Assembly: GCA_963757765.1 (NCBI GenBank)
Contig: CAVWSL010000013.1
Span: forward strand, 65,302-129,301
Reading direction: 5' to 3'
From: an uncultured Chloroflexia bacterium
GTDB taxonomy: Bacteria; Chloroflexota; Limnocylindria; Limnocylindrales; CSP1-4
Length of the DNA: 64,000 nt
The notes below the pieces were generated by a model. The model searched no databases. It was not told the DNA's origin and was given only the letters and a program-made list of their open reading frames with translations. This document shows positions 40,030 through 63,305 of the stretch, one piece after another. Each line of letters opens with the position of its first letter. Positions within the stretch are counted from its first letter, which is position 1. A program made the position numbers and the translations under genes.

Positions 40030-40083
40030 CGGGTACGGATGCCGCCGAGCAGCGCTCGGCAGCAGAGGCAGTCGTGCCCGCAG

Positions 40084-40118
40084 ACGCAGGAGCCGCAAGG
40101 CCCCTGCGTTTTTGTTTT
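40084..40118 (+). terminator. Intrinsic terminator (attenuator) upstream of the DAH7PS gene
   Basis: ACGCAGGAGCC-GCAA-GGCCCCTGCGT (10 of 11 bp paired, GNRA loop), followed by TTTTTGTTTT. It ends 28 nt before the ATG at 40147. Confidence 0.65.
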
Positions 40119-40146
40119 CCCGGCATTGCACAGGGCGGTGAGCAGG

Positions 40147-41502
40147 ATGATCGTGGTGATGCGGACCGGCGTCGACAGCGCGCTGGTGGAGGACGTCAAG
40201 AAGGTCATCGAGGCGGAGGGTCTCGAGGCCTACGTCATGGTCGGAGAGGAACGCAGCGTGATCGGTGTCGTTGGCGCCGGCGTGGAACGCGTCGAGCACG
40301 TGGCGTCGATGCCCGGCGTGGAGCAGGTCATGCGGATCTCCAAGCCGTACAAGCTGGCGAGCCGCGAGCACCATCCCGACCGGACGAGGGTCAAGGTCCG
40401 CGACGTGGTCATCGGTGGCGGCGCCTCGATCGCGGTCATGGCCGGACCATGCGCAGTCGAGTCGCGCGAGCAGCTGACCGCGACGGCACGCTGGGTGAAG
40501 CGCGAGGGTGCGACCATCCTGCGGGGTGGCGCCTTCAAGCCTCGCAGCTCCCCGTACGCGTTCCAGGGGATGGAGGTCGAAGGGCTCAAGCTGCTCGCGG
40601 ATGTCCGCGAGGAGGTCGGGCTGCCCATCGTGACCGAGGTCACCAACCCGGCCGACGTGCCCATCTTCGAGGACTACATCGACATGCTCCAGGTGGGAGC
40701 CCGGAACATGCAGAACTTCGTGCTGCTCAAGGCGGTCGGCAGGAGCCGGCTGCCGGTGCTGCTCAAGCGCGGCCTCTCCGCGACCATCGAGGAGTGGCTG
40801 ATGGCGGCCGAGTACATCCTCGCCGCGGGCAACCCCAACGTCGTGATGTGCGAGCGCGGCATCCGGAGCTTCGATCCGTCCACCCGCAACACGCTCGACC
40901 TGACCGCCGTGCCGGTGCTCCGCGAGCGGACCCACCTGCCGGTCATCGTCGACCCCTCGCACGCCACCGGACACCGCTCCCTGGTGCGCCCGATGGCCGT
41001 CGCCGGTGCCGCCGCGGGAGCCGACGGGCTGATCATCGAGGTCCACCCCGATCCGCCCCGCGCCCGTTCGGACTCCGAGCAGTCCCTCTCATTCCCCGAG
41101 TTCGGCGACCTGATGGACGACCTGCGCCGCTTCGAGTACCTGCGTCGGCCGTCCGCCCCGCAGGTGAGCGCTCAGGCCATCGTGCCCGGCGACATGGCCC
41201 GTCTCCGCGGCCGTATCGACGATGTGGATATGCGCCTGGCGGCGCTCGTCGAGGAGCGGGCGCAGCTCGCGGTGGCGGTCCAGCAGACGCGCAACGAGGA
41301 CGATCATGGCCACGACGTCGGCCGTGAGCGGGCACTCATCGAGCGCGCGACCGCATCCGAGGACAGCGTCCTGACCTCCGATGAGCGCGAGCAGGTGTAT
41401 GCGGCGATCATCCGGGCTGCGCGTTCCGCACAGCGCCGTCAGGCCGCGGCCGCCGCCGCCGCCCAGGCGGAGCAGCTGCCGACCGTGGGCTCCGTGGCGT
41501 GA
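40147..41502 (+). CDS. aroF: Type I-beta DAHP synthase with an N-terminal ferredoxin-like/ACT-like domain and a C-terminal AroQ chorismate mutase domain
   Basis: N-terminal domain: MIVVMRTGVDSALVEDVKKVIEAEGLEAYVMVGEERSVIGVVG. Catalytic core: GPCAVES, LRGGAFKPRSSPY, QVGARNMQN and DPSH. C-terminal domain: LRGRIDDVDMRLAALVEERAQLAVAV...GRERALIE. Confidence 0.85.
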   Translation: MIVVMRTGVDSALVEDVKKVIEAEGLEAYVMVGEERSVIGVVGAGVERVEHVASMPGVEQVMRISKPYKLASREHHPDRTRVKVRDVVIGGGASIAVMAGPCAVESREQLTATARWVKREGATILRGGAFKPRSSPYAFQGMEVEGLKLLADVREEVGLPIVTEVTNPADVPIFEDYIDMLQVGARNMQNFVLLKAVGRSRLPVLLKRGLSATIEEWLMAAEYILAAGNPNVVMCERGIRSFDPSTRNTLDLTAVPVLRERTHLPVIVDPSHATGHRSLVRPMAVAGAAAGADGLIIEVHPDPPRARSDSEQSLSFPEFGDLMDDLRRFEYLRRPSAPQVSAQAIVPGDMARLRGRIDDVDMRLAALVEERAQLAVAVQQTRNEDDHGHDVGRERALIERATASEDSVLTSDEREQVYAAIIRAARSAQRRQAAAAAAAQAEQLPTVGSVA

Positions 41503-42899
41503 CCGACGAAGGGGACCCGGCCAGCGGCCCGGGAGACCACGCCACGCCGGGTCGCGTCGAGCCGGCCGCCCGCATCCGGGGCGAGCTGCGTCTGCCCGGC
41601 GACAAGTCCATCGCGCACCGGGCGCTGCTGTTCGATGCTCTCGGCGAAGGCGAGGCCGACGTGCGCATCCCAACGCCGGGTGGGGATATCCGGAGCACCG
41701 CGGGCGTGCTCACGACGCTGGGTGCCATCCTCGAGGAGTCGCGCGGCCATGACGGCGTGATGCGCTATCGGGTGCGCGGCGGCGGCACGCGAAGCGCGGC
41801 CTGCCTGCCGGGCGTCGGTGGTGAGCTGCTCGACCACGGCAACGCCGGCACGAGTATGCGGCTCTCGATGGGCGCGCTCGCAGGGAGGGTCGCTGCGGCG
41901 CGCCAGATCGGGGACGCGTCGCTGTCGCGCCGCCCGATGGAACGTGTCGCGGTGCCGCTGCGTCAGATGGGAGCCTCGGTCTCGACGGTCGACGGCCACG
42001 CGCCAGTGACCGTGCGGGGCGCGCGACCCCTGCGGGCGCTGCATCACGAGCTCCCGGTGGCGAGTGCCCAGGTGCTGGGCGCGGTCAGCCTCGCCGCCCT
42101 GGCCGCGGACGGGCGGACGACCATCACGACCCCGGGCCCGACCCGCGATCACACGGAGCGGCTGCTGGCCTGGCTCGGCGTCCCGGTCTCGCGCGACGGC
42201 TTCACCACGACCGTGGCCGGTCCGACCGGCTTCGCGGCGCGCGACATCGACGTCCCGGGCGACATCTCCTCCGCCGCCTTCTGGATGGCCGCGGCCGCCC
42301 TCCATCCCGATGCGGAGCTGCGCATCCGCTCCGTCGGCCTCAACCCCAGCCGGACCGCCGTCATCGACGTGCTGCGCGAGATGGGCGCCGATATCACCGT
42401 TGTGGCAGGCGACCCGAACGGCCCGGAACCCGTCGGCGACCTGGTCATCCGGGGCGGCCAACCGATCCATGGCATCCACCTCGGTGGCATCCGGGTGGCC
42501 GACCTCATCGACGAGCTGCCCCTCCTGGCCATCGTCATGGCGGGCGCCGACGGGCCATCCGAGCTGCGTGACGCCGGGGAGCTGCGGACCAAGGAATCCG
42601 ATCGCATCGCGCTCGTCGTCGACGGGCTCTTGGCTATCGGGGTCGACGCGGAGGAGCTCCACGACGGCTGGCGCGTCACGCCCGGCGAGGCACGCAGCGG
42701 ACGACCGGCGGGGGCCACCATCGTGACCGACGGCGACCACCGCATCGCGATGGCCTTCGCGATCGCTGCGATCACTGGCGTCGCTGATGGCGTGATCGTC
42801 GATGACCCAGCCTGTGCCGAGATCTCCTACCCCACGTTCTGGAGCGACCTGGCGCTGCTGACCGATGGCAGCGGCCCGTCAGCAGGAACCACCCGATGA
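41499..42899 (+). CDS. aroA: 3-phosphoshikimate 1-carboxyvinyltransferase (EPSP synthase, class II-like motif)
   Basis: Contains LPGDKSIAHRALL, NAGTSMRL, LRTKESDRI and DHRIAMAFAIA. 466 aa. Confidence 0.95.
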   Translation: MTDEGDPASGPGDHATPGRVEPAARIRGELRLPGDKSIAHRALLFDALGEGEADVRIPTPGGDIRSTAGVLTTLGAILEESRGHDGVMRYRVRGGGTRSAACLPGVGGELLDHGNAGTSMRLSMGALAGRVAAARQIGDASLSRRPMERVAVPLRQMGASVSTVDGHAPVTVRGARPLRALHHELPVASAQVLGAVSLAALAADGRTTITTPGPTRDHTERLLAWLGVPVSRDGFTTTVAGPTGFAARDIDVPGDISSAAFWMAAAALHPDAELRIRSVGLNPSRTAVIDVLREMGADITVVAGDPNGPEPVGDLVIRGGQPIHGIHLGGIRVADLIDELPLLAIVMAGADGPSELRDAGELRTKESDRIALVVDGLLAIGVDAEELHDGWRVTPGEARSGRPAGATIVTDGDHRIAMAFAIAAITGVADGVIVDDPACAEISYPTFWSDLALLTDGSGPSAGTTR

Positions 42900-44191
42900 A
42901 CCGGCTCCGGCTCCTCACCGCCGGTGAGTCGCACGGTCCGGGCATGAGCGGCATCCTCGATGGGCTGCCGGCCGGGTTGCGTGTCTCGACCCGGGAGGTC
43001 GACCGCGACCTGGCCCGTCGGCAGCACGGCTATGGCAGCGGCCGACGGATGCGGATCGAGCGCGACCGGGTAGCGTGGAACGCCGGCCTCCGCTTCGGCC
43101 GCACGCTCGGCTCGCCGCTCGCCTTCAGCGTCGCGAACCTGGACTGGGCGAGCTGGACCGAGCGGATGTCGGTGGAGCCCATCCCCGCGGGTCGGCGACC
43201 GAAGCCCATCACGCTCGCTCGGCCGGGCCACGCGGACCTCGCGGGCGCCATCAAGTACGACACGCCCGATATCCGGGAGGTGCTGGAGCGGGCGTCGGCA
43301 CGTTCCACGGCACCTCGTGTGGCGGCCGGCTCCGTCTGCCGGCAGCTGCTCGCGGCGACCGGGGTCACGGTCTGGAGCTTCGTCGACCAGCTGGGACCCA
43401 TCCGCGCATTCCCCGACGTCGACGACCCCCTCGACCGCATCGGGAATGGCTGGTGGCAGCGGGACCGCGTCGACCCCACGCCACTCCGGTGCCCGGACCC
43501 GGTCGCCGAGGCGGCGATGATGGCCGAGGTGGATGCCGTCATCGAGGCGGGCGACTCCATCGGTGGCAGCTTCGTGGTGGTGGTCGAGGGGATGCCCATC
43601 GGGGTGGGCTCGAATGCCGAATGGGACACCCGCCTGGACACCGCACTCGCCGCCGCGACCATGGGCATCCAGGCGGTCAAGGGTGTCGAGATCGGTCTCG
43701 GCTTCGGGGTGCTCGCGCGCCGGGGCAGCGCGGTCCACGACGAGGTCGACCCGGCGCGGCCGTCGTGGGGCCGGCGCTCGAATCGCGCCGGGGGTGTCGA
43801 GGGCGGCATGAGCAACGGCGAGCCGATCGTCGTGCGCGCTGCGGTCAAGCCGGTCGCGACCCTGCGCAAGCCGCTCGACTCGGTCGACCTCGCGACCGGT
43901 CACCCGGGACGCGCCCACATCGAGCGCAGCGATGTGGCCATCCTGCCCCGCGCCGCGGTCGTGGGCGAGGCGATGGTGTCACTGGCCGTCGCGGACGCGC
44001 TGCTGTCCACGTTCGGTGGCGACACGATGGGTGATGTCCTGGCCGCGGTCCGGCGTCGCCGGCTTCGCTCCCGCGGCCCGCGTGGCATGTCCGTGAGCGG
44101 ACCGGGGTCGGGCGATGACGCGCCGGTGCTCCCCTCGTTGCCCGAGGATGCCGCAGCCGAAGCCACGCCCGTGGTCGGCACGGACGCATGA
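42896..44191 (+). CDS. aroC: Chorismate synthase
   Basis: Contains LTAGESHGPG, GRRMRIE, RPGHADLAG, ERASARSTA and GGMSNGEPI. Confidence 0.95.
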   Translation: MNRLRLLTAGESHGPGMSGILDGLPAGLRVSTREVDRDLARRQHGYGSGRRMRIERDRVAWNAGLRFGRTLGSPLAFSVANLDWASWTERMSVEPIPAGRRPKPITLARPGHADLAGAIKYDTPDIREVLERASARSTAPRVAAGSVCRQLLAATGVTVWSFVDQLGPIRAFPDVDDPLDRIGNGWWQRDRVDPTPLRCPDPVAEAAMMAEVDAVIEAGDSIGGSFVVVVEGMPIGVGSNAEWDTRLDTALAAATMGIQAVKGVEIGLGFGVLARRGSAVHDEVDPARPSWGRRSNRAGGVEGGMSNGEPIVVRAAVKPVATLRKPLDSVDLATGHPGRAHIERSDVAILPRAAVVGEAMVSLAVADALLSTFGGDTMGDVLAAVRRRRLRSRGPRGMSVSGPGSGDDAPVLPSLPEDAAAEATPVVGTDA

Positions 44192-44970
44192 CCGATGCAC
44201 TCCGGTTCGGGCTGCTCGGCCAGGGCATCGCGTACACGGCGTCCCCCGCGATGATGGCCGCCGCGTTCGCGGCCCTGGGATTGCCCCACACCTACGACAT
44301 CCGGGATGTCGCGCCATCCGACCTGCCCTCGGCGGTGGATGCGCTGCGGCGGCCCGACGCGGGCGGCGCGAACGTGACCATCCCCCACAAGGCGGCGGTC
44401 GCGCGGCTGGTCGACGACATCTCGCCTGATGCGCAGCAGGTGGACGCGGTCAATGTCGTCGTCCCCGATGCCGGCCGGCTCATCGGCCATAACACCGACC
44501 TGCCGGCGCTCATGGACGAGCTGCGACTGCTGCGCCCGAATGGGCTCGGTCGGGTCGTGCTGCTGGGTGCCGGTGGGGCGTCACGCGCGGTCGAGCTCGC
44601 GGTCATGCGGCTCGACGGCGCGCTCGTCCGAGTCACTCGTGCCGATGGCTCATGGGACCGGCTCCCCGAGCATCTCGCGGCCGCGGACCTGGTCATCAAC
44701 GCAACGCCTGTCGGCACCGGCTCGGATGACACGCCCGTGCCCGTGGGTCTGCTGCGGCCAGATCTCGCCGTGTTCGACCTCGTCTATCGGCCGAGCCCGA
44801 CGCGCCTGGTGCGCGAGGCCCGCGCGGCGGGCGCTGCGGCCCGTGGCGGCGGCGGGATGCTCCTGGGCCAGGCGTGGAGGAGCCTCGAGCTGTGGCTCGG
44901 CGTGCCCGCACCCATCGACGCCATGCGCACCGCGCTGCGCGACGCCGTGGGAGCGGACGTCGATGCCTGA
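44188..44970 (+). CDS. aroE: Shikimate dehydrogenase
   Basis: Contains SPAMMAAAFAALGL, NVTIPHK, NTD and LLGAGGASRA. 260 aa. Confidence 0.9.
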   Translation: MTDALRFGLLGQGIAYTASPAMMAAAFAALGLPHTYDIRDVAPSDLPSAVDALRRPDAGGANVTIPHKAAVARLVDDISPDAQQVDAVNVVVPDAGRLIGHNTDLPALMDELRLLRPNGLGRVVLLGAGGASRAVELAVMRLDGALVRVTRADGSWDRLPEHLAAADLVINATPVGTGSDDTPVPVGLLRPDLAVFDLVYRPSPTRLVREARAAGAAARGGGGMLLGQAWRSLELWLGVPAPIDAMRTALRDAVGADVDA

Positions 44971-46597
44971 CACCATCACGCTCGTGGGGCTGTCCGCCAG
45001 CGGCAAGAGCAGCGTCGGCCGCCTGGTCGCGGATGCGCTGGGTCGACCGTTCATCGACCTCGACGCGCGCATCCGGGCCAGGACCGGCAGCTCACCCGCG
45101 CGCATCATCGAGCGTGACGGCGAGGCCCACTTCCGGCAGATCGAGGCGGCCGAGGTCCGGCGCGCGGCGGATGTCCCGGGCGCCGTCATCGCCACTGGGG
45201 GCGGAGCCGTCATCGACCCGCTCAACCGCTGGGCGCTGTGGGAGGCGGGGACGTCGGTCTGGCTCGACGCCCCCGACGAGCGGCTCGCGGAGCGGGTCCG
45301 TCGCTCTGGCGAGCGCCGGCCGCTCGTCGCCCGCGATCCGCTCGCCGCGCTGGCCCGTCTGCGCGCCGCCCGTGAACCGTTCTACGCCGCCGCGGATCAC
45401 CGGGTGGAGTCGGCCGGCAGCACCCGGACCGTCGCCGCCGCTGTGGTGGCCGCCGCCTCGCGGCCCCGGTCCAGCGCTCGTCGGCTGTATGACACGCACG
45501 CTCGGCGGGACCATCCGATGGGTCCCCGGACGGCGCACGTGATCTACGGCCGCGACCTGGACGCGGCGATGCTGGGGCCGGTCGTCACGGACGTCTCCAC
45601 GGGCACACCCGTGGTCGTGGCCGACGAACGGGCAGCCGCGGCGCTCCCAGGTCTCATGGCCGCGTTCCCCGGGGAGCGGCAGCTACGCATCGCGGCCGGC
45701 GAACGAGGCAAGCGGATGCGCTCCGTCGAGCGGCTGCTGGAGTCGGCCGCGGCGATGCGCGCGGAGCGTGGCGATGCCTGGATCGCGATGGGCGGCGGCA
45801 CGACCGGCGACCTCGTGGGCACGGCTGCAGCGTTCTACCTCCGGGGAGCGCCGCTCATCCAGGTGCCCACGACCTGGCTCGCCCAGTCCGATTCCGCCAT
45901 CGGCGGCAAGGTCGCCGTCGACCTGGCCGCGGCCAAGAACGCGGCAGGCGCGTTCTGGCCACCGGTGGCGGTCATCGGCGATGTGGCGGCGCTCCGGACC
46001 CTGCCTCGCCAGCTGCTGCTGGACGGTCTCGCCGAGGTGCTCAAGTCGGCCATCATCGGCGACCCCTGGCTCTGGTCGCTGCTCGAGACTCGCGGGGAGG
46101 CAGCGCTGGGCGAGGTGCCGGGCGGCACGCCCGACGAAGCAGCGCGGTACGCGATGGTCGAGCGTGCGATGCGCCTCAAGCTGGGAGTCGTGGACCGCGA
46201 CCCATTCGAATCGGGCGAGCGCCGGACCCTCAACCTGGGCCACACCCTGGGCCATGCGCTGGAGATCGAGAGCCGATACCGGCTGCCACACGGCCAGGCG
46301 GTCGTCCTGGGCCTGCGGGCGGTGACCGCCATCGCCGAGGGCCGGGGCGCCGAGCCCGGCCTCTCGGAGCGTATCGATGACCTGCTCCACCGCCTGGGTT
46401 ACCGGCTCACCCGCGTCTTCGATCGGAGCGCCGTCCGGGATGCGCTCGGATCCGACAAGAAGCGGGTCCGCGGCCGCCAGCGCTGGATCCTGCCGATGGG
46501 CATCGGTACCGTCGTCGACGTCGATGATGTGACCGAGTCGGAGCTCGACCTCGCCCTCGACCGCATCACGCCCTTCGCCCGTGGTGACCGGGCATGA
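44963..46597 (+). CDS. aroKB: Fused shikimate kinase / 3-dehydroquinate synthase
   Basis: One 544-aa frame. The AroK part has LVGLSASGKSSVGR (P-loop) and ATGGGAV. The AroB part has GGGTTGDLVG, SAIGGKVAVD, LNLGHTLGHALE and HGQAV. Confidence 0.9.
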   Translation: MPDTITLVGLSASGKSSVGRLVADALGRPFIDLDARIRARTGSSPARIIERDGEAHFRQIEAAEVRRAADVPGAVIATGGGAVIDPLNRWALWEAGTSVWLDAPDERLAERVRRSGERRPLVARDPLAALARLRAAREPFYAAADHRVESAGSTRTVAAAVVAAASRPRSSARRLYDTHARRDHPMGPRTAHVIYGRDLDAAMLGPVVTDVSTGTPVVVADERAAAALPGLMAAFPGERQLRIAAGERGKRMRSVERLLESAAAMRAERGDAWIAMGGGTTGDLVGTAAAFYLRGAPLIQVPTTWLAQSDSAIGGKVAVDLAAAKNAAGAFWPPVAVIGDVAALRTLPRQLLLDGLAEVLKSAIIGDPWLWSLLETRGEAALGEVPGGTPDEAARYAMVERAMRLKLGVVDRDPFESGERRTLNLGHTLGHALEIESRYRLPHGQAVVLGLRAVTAIAEGRGAEPGLSERIDDLLHRLGYRLTRVFDRSAVRDALGSDKKRVRGRQRWILPMGIGTVVDVDDVTESELDLALDRITPFARGDRA

Positions 46598-47028
46598 GGA
46601 TCCTGCTGCTCAACGGGCCGAACCTGGGACGGCTGGGACTGCGCCAGCCGGAGATCTACGGCTCGACGACCCTGGCCCAGGTCATCGAAGCGAGCCGCGA
46701 CCGGGCCACGGCGCGTGGCTCGACCCTGGATGCCTTCCAGTCCAACCATGAGGGAGCGCTCATCGATCGCCTCGAGCAGCGCGACTACGATGGCGTGGTC
46801 ATCAATCCCGGCGCGTTCACCCACTACAGCTACGCGTTGCACGACGCGTTGGTGGCCGCGGAGACCCCGGCCATCGAGATCCACATCAGCGACATCCGGA
46901 CCCGCGAAGCGTGGCGACGGGTGTCGGTCATCCAACCTGCCGTGACCGGCACCGTGATGGGCAAGGGCTGGCAGGGCTACGTGGAGGCTGTGGACCGACT
47001 CATCGACATCGTGGAGGGCACACCGTGA
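46594..47028 (+). CDS. aroQ: Type II 3-dehydroquinate dehydratase
   Basis: Contains MRILLLNGPNLGRLGLRQPEIYG, FQSNHEG, INPGAFTHYS and EIHISD. Confidence 0.95.
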   Translation: MRILLLNGPNLGRLGLRQPEIYGSTTLAQVIEASRDRATARGSTLDAFQSNHEGALIDRLEQRDYDGVVINPGAFTHYSYALHDALVAAETPAIEIHISDIRTREAWRRVSVIQPAVTGTVMGKGWQGYVEAVDRLIDIVEGTP

Positions 47029-48508
47029 TCGCACCGGTGGCACCTGGGACCGGGGACGCGCTCGACGCGGACCGCGGACCGGACGGCGGCAGGATCGCTG
47101 TCATCGAGCTGAGCGCTGATACGCTCACACCCGTCGCAGCCGCGTTGCGGCTCAAGGATCGCCTCGCGTTCATCCTCGAGAGCGTCGAGGGCGGCGCGCG
47201 ATACGGGCGCTACTCGTTCGTGGGCGTCCGGGGCCGAACGCTCATCGTCGACCAGGGCGAGGCGGTGGTGTGGGACGCTCACTACCGGGAGCTGGAGCGG
47301 TTCGCGGAAGCCGACCCGCTCGAGGCGCTCCGACGGGTGCTCCCGCCGCGCGCTGAGGCATCCGGCTTCCCATTGCCGCTCGCAGCAGGGGTCGGCTTCG
47401 TGTCCTATGACGCTGCCGCCCGGTGGGAGAAGCTGCCCGTTCCCGACGCCGACCCGGTGGGCCTGCCCGAGGCGCTCTTCCACATGCCCTCGGTCGTCAT
47501 CGCCTTCGACCACCTGGCCCAGACCGCGACCCTCGCGACACTGCTCGACGGAGGCGCCGACGGGCGTCTGGCATCGGTCGCCGCGCAGCTCGCGGTCCCG
47601 TCCGCGGATGAGGCGCCGACGCGCCTGTCAGGGGCCGGCCAGCGGGCCGTCCGCCACGTGCCACCGGCCGCGGACCCGGTCTACGAGGCTGGCGTGGCCA
47701 AGCTCGTCGAGGACATCCACGCGGGCGAGATGCTCCAGGTCGTGCCCGCGCGACGGTTCACGGTGCCCAATCGAGCCCCCGCGCTGACCATCTACCGTGC
47801 GTTGCGGCGCATCAACCCATCGCCCTACCTGTTCGCGCTCGACCTGGGCCCGGGCAGCTCCATCCTGGGAGCCTCGCCGGAGCTGCTCGTGCGGGTGCGC
47901 GACGGCGAGGTCGTCACCCGGCCGCTCGCCGGGACGCGGCCACGCTCCGACGATCCGGTGCGCGACGCTGAGCTGGAGGCGGACCTGCGCGCCGACGAGA
48001 AGGAGCTGGCCGAGCACGCCATGCTCGTGGACCTGGCTCGCAACGATGTCGGGCGGGTGGCCGAGCCGGGCAGCGTCGAATGGCCGCTGCTGTATGGCGT
48101 GGAGCGCTACTCCCACGTGATGCATCTCGTCTCGGAGGTGCGCGGACGGCTGCGCTCCGACCGCGACGCGTTCGATGCGGTCCGCGCGACGTTCCCCGCG
48201 GGCACCCTCAGTGGGGCGCCGAAGGTGCGTGCGATGCAGGCCATCGCCGAGGTCGAAGGCGCTCGACGGGGCGCGTACGGCGGCGCGGTCGGCTACTTCT
48301 CGCCCGACGACACGGAGATCGCGATCACCATCCGGAGCGTGGTGCTCCGGGACGGGGCCGCCTTCGTGCACGCCGGTGCGGGCGTTGTCGCCGACTCGAT
48401 CCCCGCTCGTGAGTCGGCGGAGGTCGCGGCGAAGGCCGGGGCGGTGCTGACCGCGCTGGCCCAGGCAGAAGCGACGATGGCGGCTGCGGCCGGGGAAGGG
48501 GCCGAGGC

Positions 48509-48512
<4 letters not shown>
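47025..48512 (+). CDS. trpE: Anthranilate synthase component I
   Basis: Contains LESVEGGARYGRYSF, PSPY, GTLSGAPKVRAM and RGAYGGAVGYF. GTG start overlapping the aroQ stop. Confidence 0.9.
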
Positions 48513-49153
<641 letters not shown>

Positions 49154-49167
49154 AGCCACGTCCGAAG

Positions 49168-49197
49168 GCCTGCCCGAAGGTCCCTGTTCGGGCAGGC
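49168..49197 (+). terminator. Hairpin after trpG (no U-tract)
   Basis: GCCTGCCCGAA-GGTCCCTG-TTCGGGCAGGC forms a perfect 11-bp stem. It starts 15 nt after the trpG stop. Confidence 0.5.
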
Positions 49198-49212
49198 GGG
49201 ACGCCTGCTACC

Positions 49213-51375
49213 GTGCCCGGGATGTCAGGATCGCACGCACACGAGGGTGCTCGACCGGGTCCTGCCGCCGATACCCGCGCCCGACCCTTGGCTGCCCCTG
49301 CCCGCGCGGACGTCGCACCCCGGGCACCCGAGGTGCTCGAGCCGGTGTCCCTGGAGCCGGCGCGGATGACCGAGCTGCTGACACGTCCCGCGGACGGCAC
49401 GACGGCGCCGACGCCACCACCCCACGGACTCTCCCGAGGACAGATGCTCGCCCTCCAGCGGACCGTGGGCAATCGCGCCGTCACCAGCGTCATGCGCTCG
49501 GTCGCGCAACGGGTCGCCATCAAGGAGCCGACCAGGACCGAGACGCTCTACAACACGCCGGTCGCGGGTGGCCAGGCCACGGCCAACCAGTACACGATGA
49601 ACCCGCAGTACGAGATGACCCGCAGCGGTGACACGGGCGTGACCGTCACGGTGCGTATCAAGTTCCTGAGTCAGGCTCGCAATGGCGTCGACCCCACCTC
49701 GCCCGGAGCGCCCGCGGGCACCCCCGCGCTCGGCACGCTGCTCGGATCGCCCACCGAGATCCCGGCGTCCGATCCGCGTCGGGCATGGGCCACCGGCGTG
49801 GCCGCCGGCGGCGTCGCACATTGGAACGGCCACCTGACACTCGTCGGCGAGGAGTGGAACCTCACCGAGGACAACACCAGGAAGCGGCTGCCGGTCACAT
49901 TCCAGTCGGTGCCGGTCTTCGGCATCGGCGAGACAGCGCATTCGCAGATCATCGTCCATCCCTCCTCGGTGGTCGCCGGCTCACCCGGTCAGCCCATCGA
50001 CGCCGGCAACTACTACATGAACAAGGGCAACTACGGCGGTGACGAGAAGGTCATCGCCGCGCACGAGTACGGCCACCTGCTGGGTATCCCCGACGAGTAC
50101 AGCCAGAGCAACGAGCAGCTGAACGCGCTCATCCATCAGGCAGCTCCCGGCACGGCGCCGAGCGCCCGAGCGGCGCTGGACCGCATCACGGTCCAGCGGA
50201 TGGTCCTCGCGGCGCTCCGGCAGCCGATGTACAGCCAGCTGTCAGCGACGCTGCCGGAGGTCACGGAGGCGCTGCGGGCCAAGCGGCAGCTGGTCAAGAC
50301 ACGCATGGCTGCCGCGGCGCGGGAGAGTGTCGTGAGCGCCGAGGTTCGCGACGAGCTGCAGGCACAGCTGACCGTGGGCGCAGACTCCAAGCTCGGCGCG
50401 AGCGTGCCAGGCGTCGTCGCGTTCGAGACGACCGCGAACTTCAGCAACGTCAGCCGGGCGGACGAGGGAGTGGAAGCGGGCTTCTCCACCGCGGCCCTGA
50501 CCAAGCACATCGGGGACGGCTACTGGAAGGCGTTCCTCGATGCCGGCAGCGCCAACGTCGCGGTCGCCGGCCTCGGCGACGTCCGCCTGAACGTCCAGGG
50601 CTCGGTCCCGGCCACGACAGCCACTGGTGGCGCCCAGGCAGGCCCAGCCGCAGGACTGGCCACGAGCGCGGTGGGGGCAACCGCGGCGCCGGGGTTGCCC
50701 ACGATCGCGCCGCCGACGAGCCTGACCGGGAAGCTGACCGCCCTGCCAGCGACCTGGGGAGCCGCGGGTTCGGCGGTCGAGACCGGCGTCACCGCCGCCG
50801 CGTTCTCGGGCAAGATGGTGGCCACGCTCAAGGCTGCAGCCGCGAGTGCGGCGGCCGCGGCCGCCGCACTGCCACCCGGGGTCGTGCCGAGTCCCAGGAT
50901 GCAGCGTGCACGAGAGCTCTACGCGCGGGCCTACCAGATGGTCACCAACGCAGCGCGGACGGCGTCGCGGCAGGTGGCCACGGAGCTCATCGCGACCACC
51001 ATCGACCCCATCCTGACGGCGAGCGTCAGCGACCTCCAGACGACCATCGACACGGAGGTCGGTCGGATCATGACCACACCCGCGGCGGGTGTCGCGGCGC
51101 TCGGTACGCCCGATCCGAACATGGTCGCGATGGTGGCGGCGATGAAGGCGCGGCTCGACGCGGACAAGGCCGCGACCGCGGGTGGTGGTCGCGACCCACT
51201 CGGTGCCCCGGGCGGCACGGCCCCTGCCCAGGACGTGACCTACAGCTACCAGGGACTCATGGGCTCGAACGCGACGACCGCGCTCCGACCCGACCAGTTC
51301 GGCCCCATGGTGACCCAGTTCAACAGCAAGCTCACCACCCTGTTCGAGAAGAAGTTCACGGCCGAGGTCAGATGA
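49213..51375 (+). CDS. Large (about 720 aa) Ala-rich protein with an N-terminal LQRxxGNxAV motif and a snapalysin-like HExxHxxGxPDEY zinc-peptidase motif
   Basis: LALQRTVGNRAVTSV lies at aa 80-94 (nt 49453-49482 cover LQRTVGNRAV). AAHEYGHLLGIPDEY is at nt 50062-50100. The composition is protein-like (N, Y, K, I, F present) despite long Ala/Gly/Thr tracts. No signal peptide was seen. The start is GTG 49213 or ATG 49222. Confidence 0.65.
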   Translation: MPGMSGSHAHEGARPGPAADTRARPLAAPARADVAPRAPEVLEPVSLEPARMTELLTRPADGTTAPTPPPHGLSRGQMLALQRTVGNRAVTSVMRSVAQRVAIKEPTRTETLYNTPVAGGQATANQYTMNPQYEMTRSGDTGVTVTVRIKFLSQARNGVDPTSPGAPAGTPALGTLLGSPTEIPASDPRRAWATGVAAGGVAHWNGHLTLVGEEWNLTEDNTRKRLPVTFQSVPVFGIGETAHSQIIVHPSSVVAGSPGQPIDAGNYYMNKGNYGGDEKVIAAHEYGHLLGIPDEYSQSNEQLNALIHQAAPGTAPSARAALDRITVQRMVLAALRQPMYSQLSATLPEVTEALRAKRQLVKTRMAAAARESVVSAEVRDELQAQLTVGADSKLGASVPGVVAFETTANFSNVSRADEGVEAGFSTAALTKHIGDGYWKAFLDAGSANVAVAGLGDVRLNVQGSVPATTATGGAQAGPAAGLATSAVGATAAPGLPTIAPPTSLTGKLTALPATWGAAGSAVETGVTAAAFSGKMVATLKAAAASAAAAAAALPPGVVPSPRMQRARELYARAYQMVTNAARTASRQVATELIATTIDPILTASVSDLQTTIDTEVGRIMTTPAAGVAALGTPDPNMVAMVAAMKARLDADKAATAGGGRDPLGAPGGTAPAQDVTYSYQGLMGSNATTALRPDQFGPMVTQFNSKLTTLFEKKFTAEVR

Positions 51376-52073
51376 TGCGTCGGCTCGCGACGTTCAGGTG
51401 GCAGACGCCGGCACCGACCTCCGTCGACGAGGAGCTGGTGCTGTTCGATGACGGGACCACCTGGCTCGTGGTCCGCGGCCCGCGCCGCGAGGACGCCACC
51501 ATCGGCAGCTACCGGTCGCGGCCCGCCGACGCGGACGCGCGCCAGCTCAAGGCAGCGGGCGATGGGCCCCATTCCTTCGACCTCCGGGCCCCAACGGACC
51601 CCGCTCGCGCCGACCTGCTGGCGCTCGCTGAGCGGGTCGCGGAGGGCTGTCGGGCGAGCCCGCGGGCCGTGGTCACGTTCCATGCCCATCTGCCGGCCGC
51701 CGAGCCGGACGGCACTGCCGGCATCACCCTGCTGGCGGTCGCGGGTGGCGTCGACCCGGTGGAGTTCGAGCTCGATCCCGGGCCATCCTCGATCCACTAT
51801 CTCGACCGCAATGGCCAGCCGATGTCCTGGCAGGAGCTGCCGACGCCCCAGACCGGGTTCGTGACCCCAGACGCGGAGGGCCTCGGCGGCCTCCACCGGG
51901 CCGCCGTCATCCGGCCGGGCGCCTACGGTGCCATGACGTTCGCCAGCGTCCGTCCGGCTGGCGCAGCATCCGCCGCGATCCTGGTCGCTGGCTGGCTCCG
52001 GGACGCGTTCCCGGATGCGCCGAACCCGGAACGGTTCCTCGTGCGCACCGCATCGACGCCCACGCCTTCCTAG
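51372..52073 (+). CDS. Hypothetical 233-aa protein translationally coupled to the metallopeptidase-like gene
   Basis: ATGA overlap at 51372-51375. Beta-rich-looking sequence (ELVLFDDGTTWLVVRG...AVVTFHAHL...GITLLAVAGGVDPVEFELDP). No family was recognised. Confidence 0.55.
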   Translation: MMRRLATFRWQTPAPTSVDEELVLFDDGTTWLVVRGPRREDATIGSYRSRPADADARQLKAAGDGPHSFDLRAPTDPARADLLALAERVAEGCRASPRAVVTFHAHLPAAEPDGTAGITLLAVAGGVDPVEFELDPGPSSIHYLDRNGQPMSWQELPTPQTGFVTPDAEGLGGLHRAAVIRPGAYGAMTFASVRPAGAASAAILVAGWLRDAFPDAPNPERFLVRTASTPTPS

Positions 52074-61832: not shown

Positions 61833-63305
61833 TTACTCGATCTTCTTCCAGGCTCGCTCCCACCAGGCCTGAGCCAGCGACATGTCGTTCGACGGGATCG
61901 GGATGCCGTTGTACGGACTCACCGCAACGACCACGAACCGGAGCTCGTCGTTCTCAAGGGTCCACGTAACGTCGTTGATGTCGGGGCCGCATGGGGAGGT
62001 CCATGTGAAGCGCACGACGGCGCCCTGTACCGAGTAGGAGAGTGTGCAATCAGGCGGGACCCCGTTGCTATCGGTCGCGACGCCGTCCTTCAGGGCAAAG
62101 GTCGTGGTGCCGGCATTCCCGTATGCCCAGTTGGCCGGCGCGCCCTTGGCCATCAGCTCGTCAGCGGTGATCACGGCCCGGTACACGCCATTCGGCGGTA
62201 GCTGCGCCACGGGTCCGGTCGCGGGCGCCGCGGTGATGGCGGCGGCGGGCGGATGCTCACAGGCTGCCGCGCTCGGGCCGGCGGTGGTGGCTGCCTTCAG
62301 ATCCTGAATGTCGGCGATGAGCTGCTTCGTCAGAGGATCCTGCTCCAGGCCCGCGTACAGCGGCTGTGTCGCCGCCTCGAAGGCTGCGACCTGAGCGTCG
62401 CTTGCGAGCACGATGTGACCGCCGTCGGCACACCAACCAGCTCCGGCATCCGCATCGTTCTGGTGTGCGCCGATGGCGTCCTCCTGGGCGATCGCAACGG
62501 CCTGCCGAAGATTCGCCTGCTGTTGGTCGGTCAGGCGCCCGTAGGCCGCGTCATCGATGACGAGGACGTCGTACCGGGGGAAGAACGTCACGTTTCCCGT
62601 AGCCGTAAGCCGGCCCGGATCGTACCGACGATGACCAAAGCCGCTCTCGACGCCGTCCAGACCGCAATCGTCGTTCGATCCCGTGGGTGTGTCGTTCGGT
62701 TCGGCGCCCAGGGCACGCAGCATGTCGAACGTGGCCTGCGACGTGAAGGCGCCGATGGTCTTTCCAGCCAGGTCGGTGGGTGACAGGAACGGTGCCACGT
62801 GGCAGTCATCAAAGGCGAATGGGTGCCGCAGGTCCTGGGGATAGAGGCCCAGCCCCACCACCCCAGCGGACCCCATGCCGTCGAGCATGCGTTGGCCGAT
62901 GTCAGTGCCGGCGACGGCCGTCGCCAGGGCGTCGCTGGTGATGAGGAACGGCGCCTGGAGCGCCTGCAGGCTCGTGACGCCCTTGGCGTCCCAGGTGCGC
63001 GTCGGCAGCAGCCCCATCTCGAGGTCGCCATCGATCACTCGCTGGGCGACCACCTGGTACTTGTCACCAGGGCTGTCGTGATTGGCGTTGAATTCGGGCT
63101 CGATGGTGATGCTGTCCGACAGCTTGGCGACCTGCTCGACGAGGTCGGCGACGACCCCGGGGACGACGACGTCGCCCGGACCGTCGCCGAGGCCAAGGCG
63201 GAGGGTGACGTGTGGGTCGGCCGCCTGTGTTGACGTGCCGACGCCTGCCGTCGCGAGGATGACGCTGCCCGCCAGCGTGGCGAGCACCCGGCTCCTGTGG
63301 TGCAT
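61833..63305 (-). CDS. Secreted solute-binding-like protein (TRAP DctP-like N-terminal half plus an extra C-terminal domain)
   Basis: 490 aa from MHHRSRVLATLAGSVILATAGVGTSTQA (signal peptide, GGAGG RBS). DGDLEMGLLPTRTWDAKGVTSLQALQAPFLI resembles DctP-type binding proteins. The family call is tentative. Confidence 0.55.
   Translation of the reverse strand: MHHRSRVLATLAGSVILATAGVGTSTQAADPHVTLRLGLGDGPGDVVVPGVVADLVEQVAKLSDSITIEPEFNANHDSPGDKYQVVAQRVIDGDLEMGLLPTRTWDAKGVTSLQALQAPFLITSDALATAVAGTDIGQRMLDGMGSAGVVGLGLYPQDLRHPFAFDDCHVAPFLSPTDLAGKTIGAFTSQATFDMLRALGAEPNDTPTGSNDDCGLDGVESGFGHRRYDPGRLTATGNVTFFPRYDVLVIDDAAYGRLTDQQQANLRQAVAIAQEDAIGAHQNDADAGAGWCADGGHIVLASDAQVAAFEAATQPLYAGLEQDPLTKQLIADIQDLKAATTAGPSAAACEHPPAAAITAAPATGPVAQLPPNGVYRAVITADELMAKGAPANWAYGNAGTTTFALKDGVATDSNGVPPDCTLSYSVQGAVVRFTWTSPCGPDINDVTWTLENDELRFVVVAVSPYNGIPIPSNDMSLAQAWWERAWKKIE

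Follow-up and report, generated by a model that had tools for sequence, protein, structure and literature searches.

What is a large gene for a protease-like protein doing directly behind trpG, in a genomic neighbourhood that otherwise holds housekeeping genes? In this study, we performed a sequence and structure-prediction analysis of this gene (49213..51375, plus strand) within a stretch of 64,000 nucleotides, hereafter the window, from an uncultured Chloroflexia bacterium (GCA_963757765.1, contig CAVWSL010000013.1, positions 65,302 to 129,301), and of its relatives in other genomes. Its product, here called the main protein, joins an N-terminal LQRxxGNxAV motif (LQR motif) to a zinc-binding signature of metzincin type. 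An original prediction made from the letters of the window alone had drawn attention to it but overlooked the gene that follows, which encodes a partner of 233 residues (51372..52073, plus strand) and whose ATG overlaps the TGA of the main gene (ATGA). Our analyses lean towards the view that the two genes form a cargo or effector module of the contractile injection system (CIS) lineage of Actinomycetota and Chloroflexota, consisting of an LQR-tagged metzincin-like protein and its cognate partner. We read the pair in the window as probably a stray cargo or effector module because the homologous pair occupies the cargo position in the CIS clusters of other bacteria.

The main protein had been described as an orphan, which proved not to be so. 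At least 242 full-length homologues were found at E ≤ 1e-3 (matches among 8000 scored candidates), and a tblastn search against GTDB species representatives gave 80 loci, of which the five weakest (L082-L086) match only about 55 to 80 residues round the zinc motif and the remainder make up about 76 full-length loci. Clustering of the open reading frames (ORFs) of all fetched loci, with the members named by Pfam, revealed a recurrent neighbourhood of an AAA+ ATPase with a winged-helix domain, an eCIS_core/DUF4157 protein, a phage sheath protein, a gp19-type tube protein, a GerE regulator and an fn3 protein. At 12 of the about 76 species loci, the family gene has CIS genes no more than 10 kb away (L023, L032, L039, L048 with the AAA+ gene only, L059, L061, L064, L065, L068, L070, L072 and L081), and at one more locus, L037, a giant DUF4157 protein is encoded nearby. 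The gene order in L061 is AAA+ ATPase, DUF4157 protein, family protein, partner, sheath and tube, and its DUF4157 protein scores 113 bits against PF13699. The CIS-linked members are scattered over all major clades of the family tree, including relatives at 55-56% identity. The motif is shared as well as the position: the same LQRxAGNxxV motif stands upstream of the DUF4157 domain in 11 of 12 DUF4157 proteins of these clusters, and 9 of the 12 CIS-linked family members carry an LQR-type motif.

Two canonical CIS clusters of Limnocylindrales, reached through sheath homologues (L087 and L088), demonstrated what else may occupy this position. Both encode Pvc16_N, sheath, tubes, a VgrG-like spike, PAAR, gp25 and baseplate J proteins, both have a variable slot adjoining the DUF4157 and AAA+ ATPase genes, and the main-protein family is absent from both. 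On the 3.6-Mb contig of L087 (L087:891-6941), the slot holds two annexin-domain proteins of 764 aa (with PG_binding_1) and 519 aa, one with LQRTAGNAAV and the other with the variant LQTAAGNRAV. Each annexin gene is followed by an ORF of 233 or 220 aa without a Pfam domain, and the two ORFs show homology to one another (E 1e-11 to 1e-14). BLAST and HMMER found no match between them and the partner, and a profile comparison with the partner family gave a weak N-terminal likeness (hhalign P=8e-4, probability 24%), which is suggestive of a relationship between our partner and the partners of annexin-type LQR proteins, a relationship that we do not claim. Two further observations concern the CIS-linked loci. 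The sheath protein of L039:15769-17433 had at least 8000 homologues, the best 120 clusters being 75-93% identical; with sheath proteins of this Limnocylindrales-type lineage thus extremely abundant in soil metagenomes, CIS are a very common feature of these uncultured Chloroflexota. In L032:9992-14045, three neighbouring ORFs of 382, 340 and 565 aa stand in place of a single family gene and contain two distinct HEYGH sites, owing either to a frameshift in the assembly or to a tandem duplication in which the LQR tag is missing from one copy.

The LQR motif, LALQRTVGNRAVTS, occupies residues 79-92 of the main protein (nt 49447-49488). It belongs to a module (49435..49515, plus strand), delimited by conservation and profile search, in which a helix of residues 75-95, predicted with a local distance difference test score (pLDDT) of 64-74, carries LALQRTVGNRAV and is followed by QRV at residues 99-101. 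A profile made from 33 positions of the motif region, searched against 1.84 billion representative proteins, matched 600 proteins at E ≤ 1e-3. In the matches listed, the motif lies near the N-terminus, mostly at positions 20-110, is usually followed by (V/I/L)QR after 10-20 residues, and precedes widely different C-terminal regions in proteins of 58-1498 aa. Most of 70 matches from outside the family (at least 200 aa) have no Pfam domain, and the commonest domain among them is eCIS_core/DUF4157 (9 of 70), along with PG_binding_1 (3), OmpA (2), and Ntox34, Tox-ART-HYD1, Peptidase_M15_4 and DUF6782 (1 each); the named LQR-bearing DUF4157 proteins come from Actinomadura graeca and a Streptomyces species. 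These results bear out the earlier suggestion that the motif is linked to DUF4157 and extracellular CIS (eCIS) proteins, and polymorphic-toxin domains occur with it as well. The motif goes together with the DUF4157 family but is not one of its defining characters. Our literature search found the motif strings in no paper, and a study of 2024 states that the eCIS signal had so far yielded no specific conserved sequence (PMC11297309).

Tandem duplication or triplication of the LQR motif at intervals of about 15-40 residues is frequent among the profile matches (P0259, P0294, P0248 and P0322; e.g., ALQRTIGNPSTARVLALQRTIGNPSTARVLALQ). One match of 1498 aa (P0301) contains six ALQRPAGN copies exactly 119 residues apart and probably represents an unrelated repeat protein that the profile matched falsely; therefore, not all 600 matches count as true LQR tags. 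In addition, a second, unrelated LQR-tagged ORF (LLELQRVAGNRAV, about 304-338 aa, no Pfam domain on record) was observed immediately downstream of and convergent to the cassette on a 2.1-Mb Chloroflexota contig (L001:12847-13761, minus strand), making this locus a small island of LQR-tagged genes away from CIS genes.

About 200 residues past the LQR motif lies the zinc signature HEYGHLLGIPDEY at residues 284-296 (50062..50100, plus strand), which aligns with the snapalysin motif HETGHVLGLPDHY and has its Tyr two residues past the Asp, as in snapalysin. Judged from these letters, the site is of the metzincin type HEYGHxxGxxDEY, in which the Asp is presumed to serve as third ligand as in M6 and M7 peptidases. 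Profiles of M6, M7 and M10 match around the motif below threshold: Peptidase_M6 (PF05547) scores 16.1 bits against a cut-off of 22, the M6 domain TIGR03296 25.5 against 110.8, Peptidase_M7 (PF02031) 16.7 against 25 and snapalysin NF033628 16.1 against 300, and the likeness is limited to about 30-55 residues. A sequence search of the PDB, for which both the protein and a spliced family profile served as queries, matched only snapalysin and karilysin, round HExxH and at E ≥ 0.037; for snapalysin 1c7k, E was 0.037-0.5, round the motif only. PF13699 (DUF4157) had no match to the main protein even at E ≤ 1, no Pfam or NCBIfam family passed its threshold for either protein of the pair, and scans of PHROGs and PADLOC returned nothing for the main protein or its partner. 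As far as profile comparison can tell, the main protein belongs to no curated peptidase family. The M6 peptidase InhA is a metzincin bearing the same zinc signature. The proposed resemblance to M7 snapalysin, and not to DUF4157, is thus sound, with the addition that M6 InhA is equally similar.

Conservation singles out the same residues. Positions H284, E285, Y286, G287, H288, G291, D294, E295, Y296 and H308 (the last at 50134-50136) are invariant in all 73 full-length members aligned, down to 25% identity, so that the H-E-H-D positions, on whose conservation the original prediction had staked its case, vary in none of them. The LQR module is under similar constraint: L81, Q82, G86, N87, Q99, R100 and V101 are nearly invariant across the 73 members, and among 113 aligned homologues L81, Q82, G86, R100 and V101 are invariant and N87 and Q99 at least 90% conserved. 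Both motifs are present at the spacing first described, and neither is there by chance.

AlphaFold2, run with the 113-sequence alignment, predicted the main protein with a mean pLDDT of 88.6 and a predicted template modelling score (pTM) of 0.83. Residues 1-66 (49213..49410, plus strand) are Pro/Ala-rich, variable and unconserved in alignments and fall below pLDDT 50, in keeping with the disordered N-terminus described earlier. Next to the LQR module, a zinc-peptidase-like beta-rich domain spans residues 99-300 (49507..50112, plus strand; pLDDT 95-98; identified from the model and the sub-threshold M6, M7 and M10 matches); in the model, its beta-rich region of residues 99-270 closes with the predicted active-site helix at residues 278-289. 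The last 400 or so residues had been taken for low-complexity sequence, a view that we abandon because they are conserved and ordered in the AlphaFold2 model: residues 300-655 (50110..51177, plus strand) are predicted to form a large alpha-helical domain, mostly at pLDDT above 90. Behind it follows a conserved C-terminal beta/alpha segment of residues 668-720 (51214..51375, plus strand) with VTYSYQGLMGS and a helix at residues 693-706 in the model; V675, T676, Y677, M683 and G684 are invariant in the 113-sequence alignment, and M683 is kept in 65 of 73 members of the wider set. GLM683GS and the helix of residues 693-706 could be a candidate Met-turn and C-terminal helix; if GLM683GS is the Met-turn, the helical domain would be an insertion of about 370 residues. 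With residues 304-667 spliced out, the M7 score increased only slightly, to 19.0 from 16.7 bits, and M683 did not align to the Met-turn; an artificial spliced construct of another family member reached 22.2 bits against PF05547 (cut-off 22). A whole-chain Foldseek search with the main protein returned nothing significant (best E 0.05 in PDB and 0.14 in BFVD), helical proteins dominating the matches.

The partner belongs to a family of 111 clusters of 216-251 aa without a Pfam domain. By tblastn, nearly every family locus at 45% identity or more has it directly downstream of the main gene, and it is detected more weakly in more distant loci. The stop and start codons of the pair overlap or abut, and the flanking genes are wholly different between genomes; since the flanks differ while the pair is kept, the pair behaves as a mobile two-gene cassette. 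The partner was predicted at a pLDDT of 95.9, with an N-terminal alpha/beta domain and a C-terminal beta-sandwich, and Foldseek gave it weak, generic matches (mu-homology domains, ApaG, Ig-like domains and the Bacillus subtilis intracellular proteinase inhibitor, 3isy). It may act as an adaptor for loading or else as an inhibitor or immunity protein.

The distribution of the family also points to an exchanged module. The best 120 homologues are all full-length (identities of 49-100%, with about 89% of the query covered) and recorded as hypothetical proteins without a precomputed Pfam domain; scans of the main protein and of the homologue records gave no Pfam or NCBIfam assignment. Chloroflexota carriers are mostly Limnocylindrales, the nearest relative being an uncultured 'Chloroflexia' metagenome-assembled genome (MAG) at 88% identity; Actinomycetota carriers comprise Microlunatus, Nocardioides, Angustibacter, Agromyces, Fodinicola, Nakamurella, Pseudonocardia, Acidimicrobiales and Nanopelagicales, and one Eisenbacteria MAG also carries a family locus. 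Members from Chloroflexota and Actinomycetota are interleaved in a neighbour-joining tree, which indicates horizontal transfer of the family. No relative was found in IMG/VR viral contigs; therefore, the family is not phage-borne. The CIS lineage of Actinomycetota and Chloroflexota has itself been grouped with the cytoplasmic Streptomyces systems, with transfer between phyla noted (PMC12998442).

Taken as CIS cargo, the pair may work as follows. The LQR module, together with the disordered N-terminus, would act as a tag for recruitment to or loading into the phage-tail-like particle, a tag that would be common to the DUF4157 'eCIS core' protein of the cluster and to other proteins of the cargo slot. 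The metalloprotease, with its putative catalytic activity, and the helical body would be the payload, and the co-translated partner would bind this payload, whether to inhibit it, to confer immunity or to adapt it for loading. In this layout of tag, zinc-peptidase-like module and large body, the metzincin-like module would take the place of DUF4157. In AlgoCIS, a disordered N-terminal region is needed for loading and the AAA+ ATPase is required, and DUF4157 is dispensable (bioRxiv 10.64898/2026.05.27.728243); DUF4157 also marks eCIS toxins (PMC8213781). These two precedents are consistent with the idea of LQR-dependent loading. Of the features expected of CIS cargo, a disordered N-terminal region common to other cargo is present, residues 1-66 being disordered in the model and the LQR motif recurring on DUF4157 and annexin proteins of the slot; a position in or next to a CIS cluster or DUF4157 gene is lacking in the window copy and is found at the 12 species loci named above.

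Comparison with known systems sharpened both the likeness and the differences. The main protein resembles DUF4157 cargo such as AlgoCIS Cgo1/Cgo2, Tme of Streptomyces davawensis and SLIV_17110/Sle1 of S. lividans in having a disordered N-terminus, an HExxH module and a large C-terminal body; it has the same N-terminal LQR motif as the DUF4157 proteins in CIS clusters, and its homologues stand between the AAA+/DUF4157 genes and the sheath gene. In contrast to such cargo, it has no PF13699 match, its zinc site is of the M6/M7 type HExxHxxGxxDEY, its body is predicted to be a compact, confidently folded helical domain rather than a tape-measure-like or disordered linker, and the window copy, whose loading is putative, lies outside a CIS cluster. 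The cytoplasmic CIS effectors Sco4256-4258 of Streptomyces coelicolor have highly similar N-termini and different C-terminal domains; our family is like them in its N-terminal module common to other cluster proteins and in its position upstream of the sheath gene, whereas they have a transmembrane (TM) helix and, in two of three, a ricin-type domain, and the main protein is peptidase-like without a TM helix. With snapalysin (M7, PF02031, 1c7k/1kuh) and InhA (M6, PF05547/TIGR03296) it shares HExxHxxG(L/I)PD(E/H)Y, the Tyr two past the Asp and a strand before the active-site helix. However, M6 and M7 enzymes are secreted via signal peptides, M7 enzymes are of about 130 aa, and an LQR tag and a 350-residue helical domain are missing from both; the main protein has 720 aa, several domains and an N-terminus that is not hydrophobic. 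By analogy, the pair is also reminiscent of orphan (auxiliary) type VI secretion system (T6SS) effector modules, in which an effector and a small cognate gene travel together inside or far from the main cluster, except that the machinery here would be a CIS and not a T6SS, and that no VgrG, PAAR or known adaptor family is nearby.

Several of our results weigh against a cargo role. About 84% of the family loci have no CIS gene within 10 kb, and neither ORF scans of the 64-kb window nor tblastn searches of it with CIS proteins of the linked loci and of L087 detected CIS or secretion genes. The signature of about 30 residues behind the peptidase assignment scores below every curated threshold, the whole-chain Foldseek search returned no protease for the main protein, and the fold matches of the partner are generic. 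The family is 50-78% identical along its whole length across two phyla, which is unusually conserved for a toxin. Furthermore, two unrelated LQR-tagged proteins that we examined both lie far from CIS genes; since other LQR-tagged proteins are often far from CIS, the tag could serve another machinery. Such findings would suit an ordinary cytoplasmic or cell-associated metalloprotease with an inhibitor or chaperone, doing housekeeping or regulatory work independently of any CIS, with the LQR helix serving regulation, oligomerisation or localisation and the CIS neighbourhood being incidental or secondary. Most loci, including the window, do lie in housekeeping or variable contexts without CIS genes, full-length conservation is more enzyme-like than one would expect of a fast-evolving toxin, and an intracellular proteinase inhibitor (3isy) is among the weak fold matches of the partner. 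We nevertheless regard this explanation as unlikely, for the CIS linkage recurs in 12 species and in all clades, in the same slot by the DUF4157 and AAA+ ATPase genes, the N-terminal motif is common to the CIS marker protein of the same clusters, and the patchy, interleaved spread over Chloroflexota and Actinomycetota looks like that of a transferred accessory module.

If the CIS link is accepted, the main protein could instead be an accessory or maturation protease that cuts at or near the LQR...QR leaders of DUF4157 proteins and cargo, its own tag providing co-recruitment or autoprocessing. This would account for the strong conservation and the invariant catalytic signature, for a gene immediately adjoining the DUF4157 and AAA+ genes, and for the pair of basic, conserved QR motifs in the tag (LQR and V/IQR), possible sites of recognition or cleavage, and DUF4157's own part in loading or maturation is unsettled (bioRxiv 10.64898/2026.05.27.728243; PMC8213781). 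We consider it rather improbable, more so than a CIS-independent enzyme: L087 and L088 lack the family, which is thus not a core CIS component, the slot of L087 holds unrelated LQR-tagged proteins as expected of interchangeable cargo, and there is no evidence for cleavage of any LQR leader. Least credible, to a degree that leaves it little room, is a toxin with its immunity protein, the partner, for which export would take some other route, such as type VII secretion (T7SS) or a polymorphic-toxin pathway. The effector-first order with a small, tightly coupled gene downstream, the presence of Ntox34 and Tox-ART-HYD1 among LQR-tagged proteins and the missing signal peptide agree with such a pair; yet no T7SS or other secretion genes occur in the window or in the surveyed flanks, CIS is the only secretion-type machinery recurrently linked to the family, and the C-terminal region shows no polymorphism. 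Conservation extends over the whole protein, unlike the layout of polymorphic toxin-immunity systems, in which a variable C-terminal toxin domain follows a conserved N-terminal trafficking part. T7SS and classical secretion were set aside on account of the missing signal peptide, TM segment and neighbouring secretion genes. A simple hydropathy scan with 19-residue windows, the only method applied here, found no signal-peptide-like or TM segment in the main protein: the N-terminus is not hydrophobic, and the maximum Kyte-Doolittle value of 1.57 (below 1.6) falls on the Ala-rich helix at residues 535-553, in agreement with the earlier statement that both are missing. The proposal that the protein is a non-classically exported effector or toxin gains strong genomic support from homologues in the CIS cargo slot beside LQR-tagged DUF4157 proteins, whereas effector or toxin activity is something we infer.

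Orphan effector cassettes have precedents, as have CIS effectors whose N-terminus contains a loading region; the main family, the partner family and the LQR motif as a shared tag are unnamed in Pfam, NCBIfam, PHROGs and PADLOC. Cargo choice is an open question for CIS, especially for the cytoplasmic Streptomyces-type systems of Gram-positives and Chloroflexota, and the locus points to a short N-terminal motif common to the DUF4157 marker, to cargo-slot proteins and to hundreds of dispersed genes, so that the question of cargo selection becomes testable. A wider proposal, to which we give appreciably less credence than to the cargo role of the pair and which we put forward tentatively, is that LQRxxGNxAV...QR is a discrete, sequence-defined recruitment or loading signal of the CIS lineage of Actinomycetota and Chloroflexota and that the at least 600 representative LQR-tagged clusters, most of them with genes far from CIS loci, are a dispersed cargo repertoire. 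Under this proposal, the pair would be a new cargo class with a metzincin-like module replacing DUF4157, a helical insertion of about 370 residues separating the zinc site from the Met-turn, and a dedicated two-domain partner akin to those that accompany other LQR cargo. Two sizeable unnamed families are in any case defined here, a metzincin-like protein of about 700 aa and a partner of about 230 aa, both abundant in soil Chloroflexota and Actinomycetota, and both may serve as payloads when cells die in a regulated manner or antagonise one another. Should the link to CIS not hold, the pair would still be of moderate interest as an undescribed and highly conserved protease with its partner.

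In the window itself, the setting of the pair is the one first described. About 40 ORFs scanned across its 64 kb are all housekeeping genes, among them seryl- and lysyl-tRNA synthetases, BacA, an H+-pyrophosphatase, an M16 peptidase and panB/panC; this copy is therefore unlinked to any CIS there, and the earlier account of a housekeeping neighbourhood without secretion or CIS genes is confirmed by these scans and by tblastn. One tblastn match to DUF4157 at 61980-62183 (plus strand, E 0.003) was rejected as spurious, being antisense to a real minus-strand gene and lacking HExxH, as is typical of high-GC sequence. An aromatic amino-acid operon ends in trpE and trpG directly upstream of the cassette. 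The stretch at 40030-49153 encodes a DAHP synthase-chorismate mutase fusion, EPSP synthase, chorismate synthase, a shikimate kinase/3-dehydroquinate synthase fusion, type II dehydroquinase, trpE and trpG; trpD, trpC, trpB and trpA do not follow trpG, and the cassette sits there, before a convergent 3-hydroxyacyl-CoA dehydrogenase gene, part of a convergent block with GNAT, MeaB and B12-binding protein genes.

Between the trp genes and the cassette sits a GC-rich hairpin (49154..49209, plus strand), which follows the trpG stop codon (49151-49153) and has a perfect 11-bp core stem (49168-49178/49187-49197); RNA folding gave a free energy of -31.8 kcal/mol and a z-score of -2.7. It lacks a T-run, and a consensus terminator scan made no terminator call. 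Of the trpG terminator hairpin described earlier, the strong hairpin directly 3' of trpG is confirmed, and its reading as a terminator has no backing from that scan. The main ORF gives 720 aa from a GTG start at 49213. The true start is probably the ATG at 49222 (MSGSHAHEG...), because the close homologues P0002 and P0004 open with MSGSQAHD and MSVGPAHD; the public gene call for the contig places it at the ATG at 49366, which gives 669 aa. The codon composition of the ORF is coding-like, with a G+C fraction of 0.83 at third against 0.59 at second codon positions in a window of 72% G+C.

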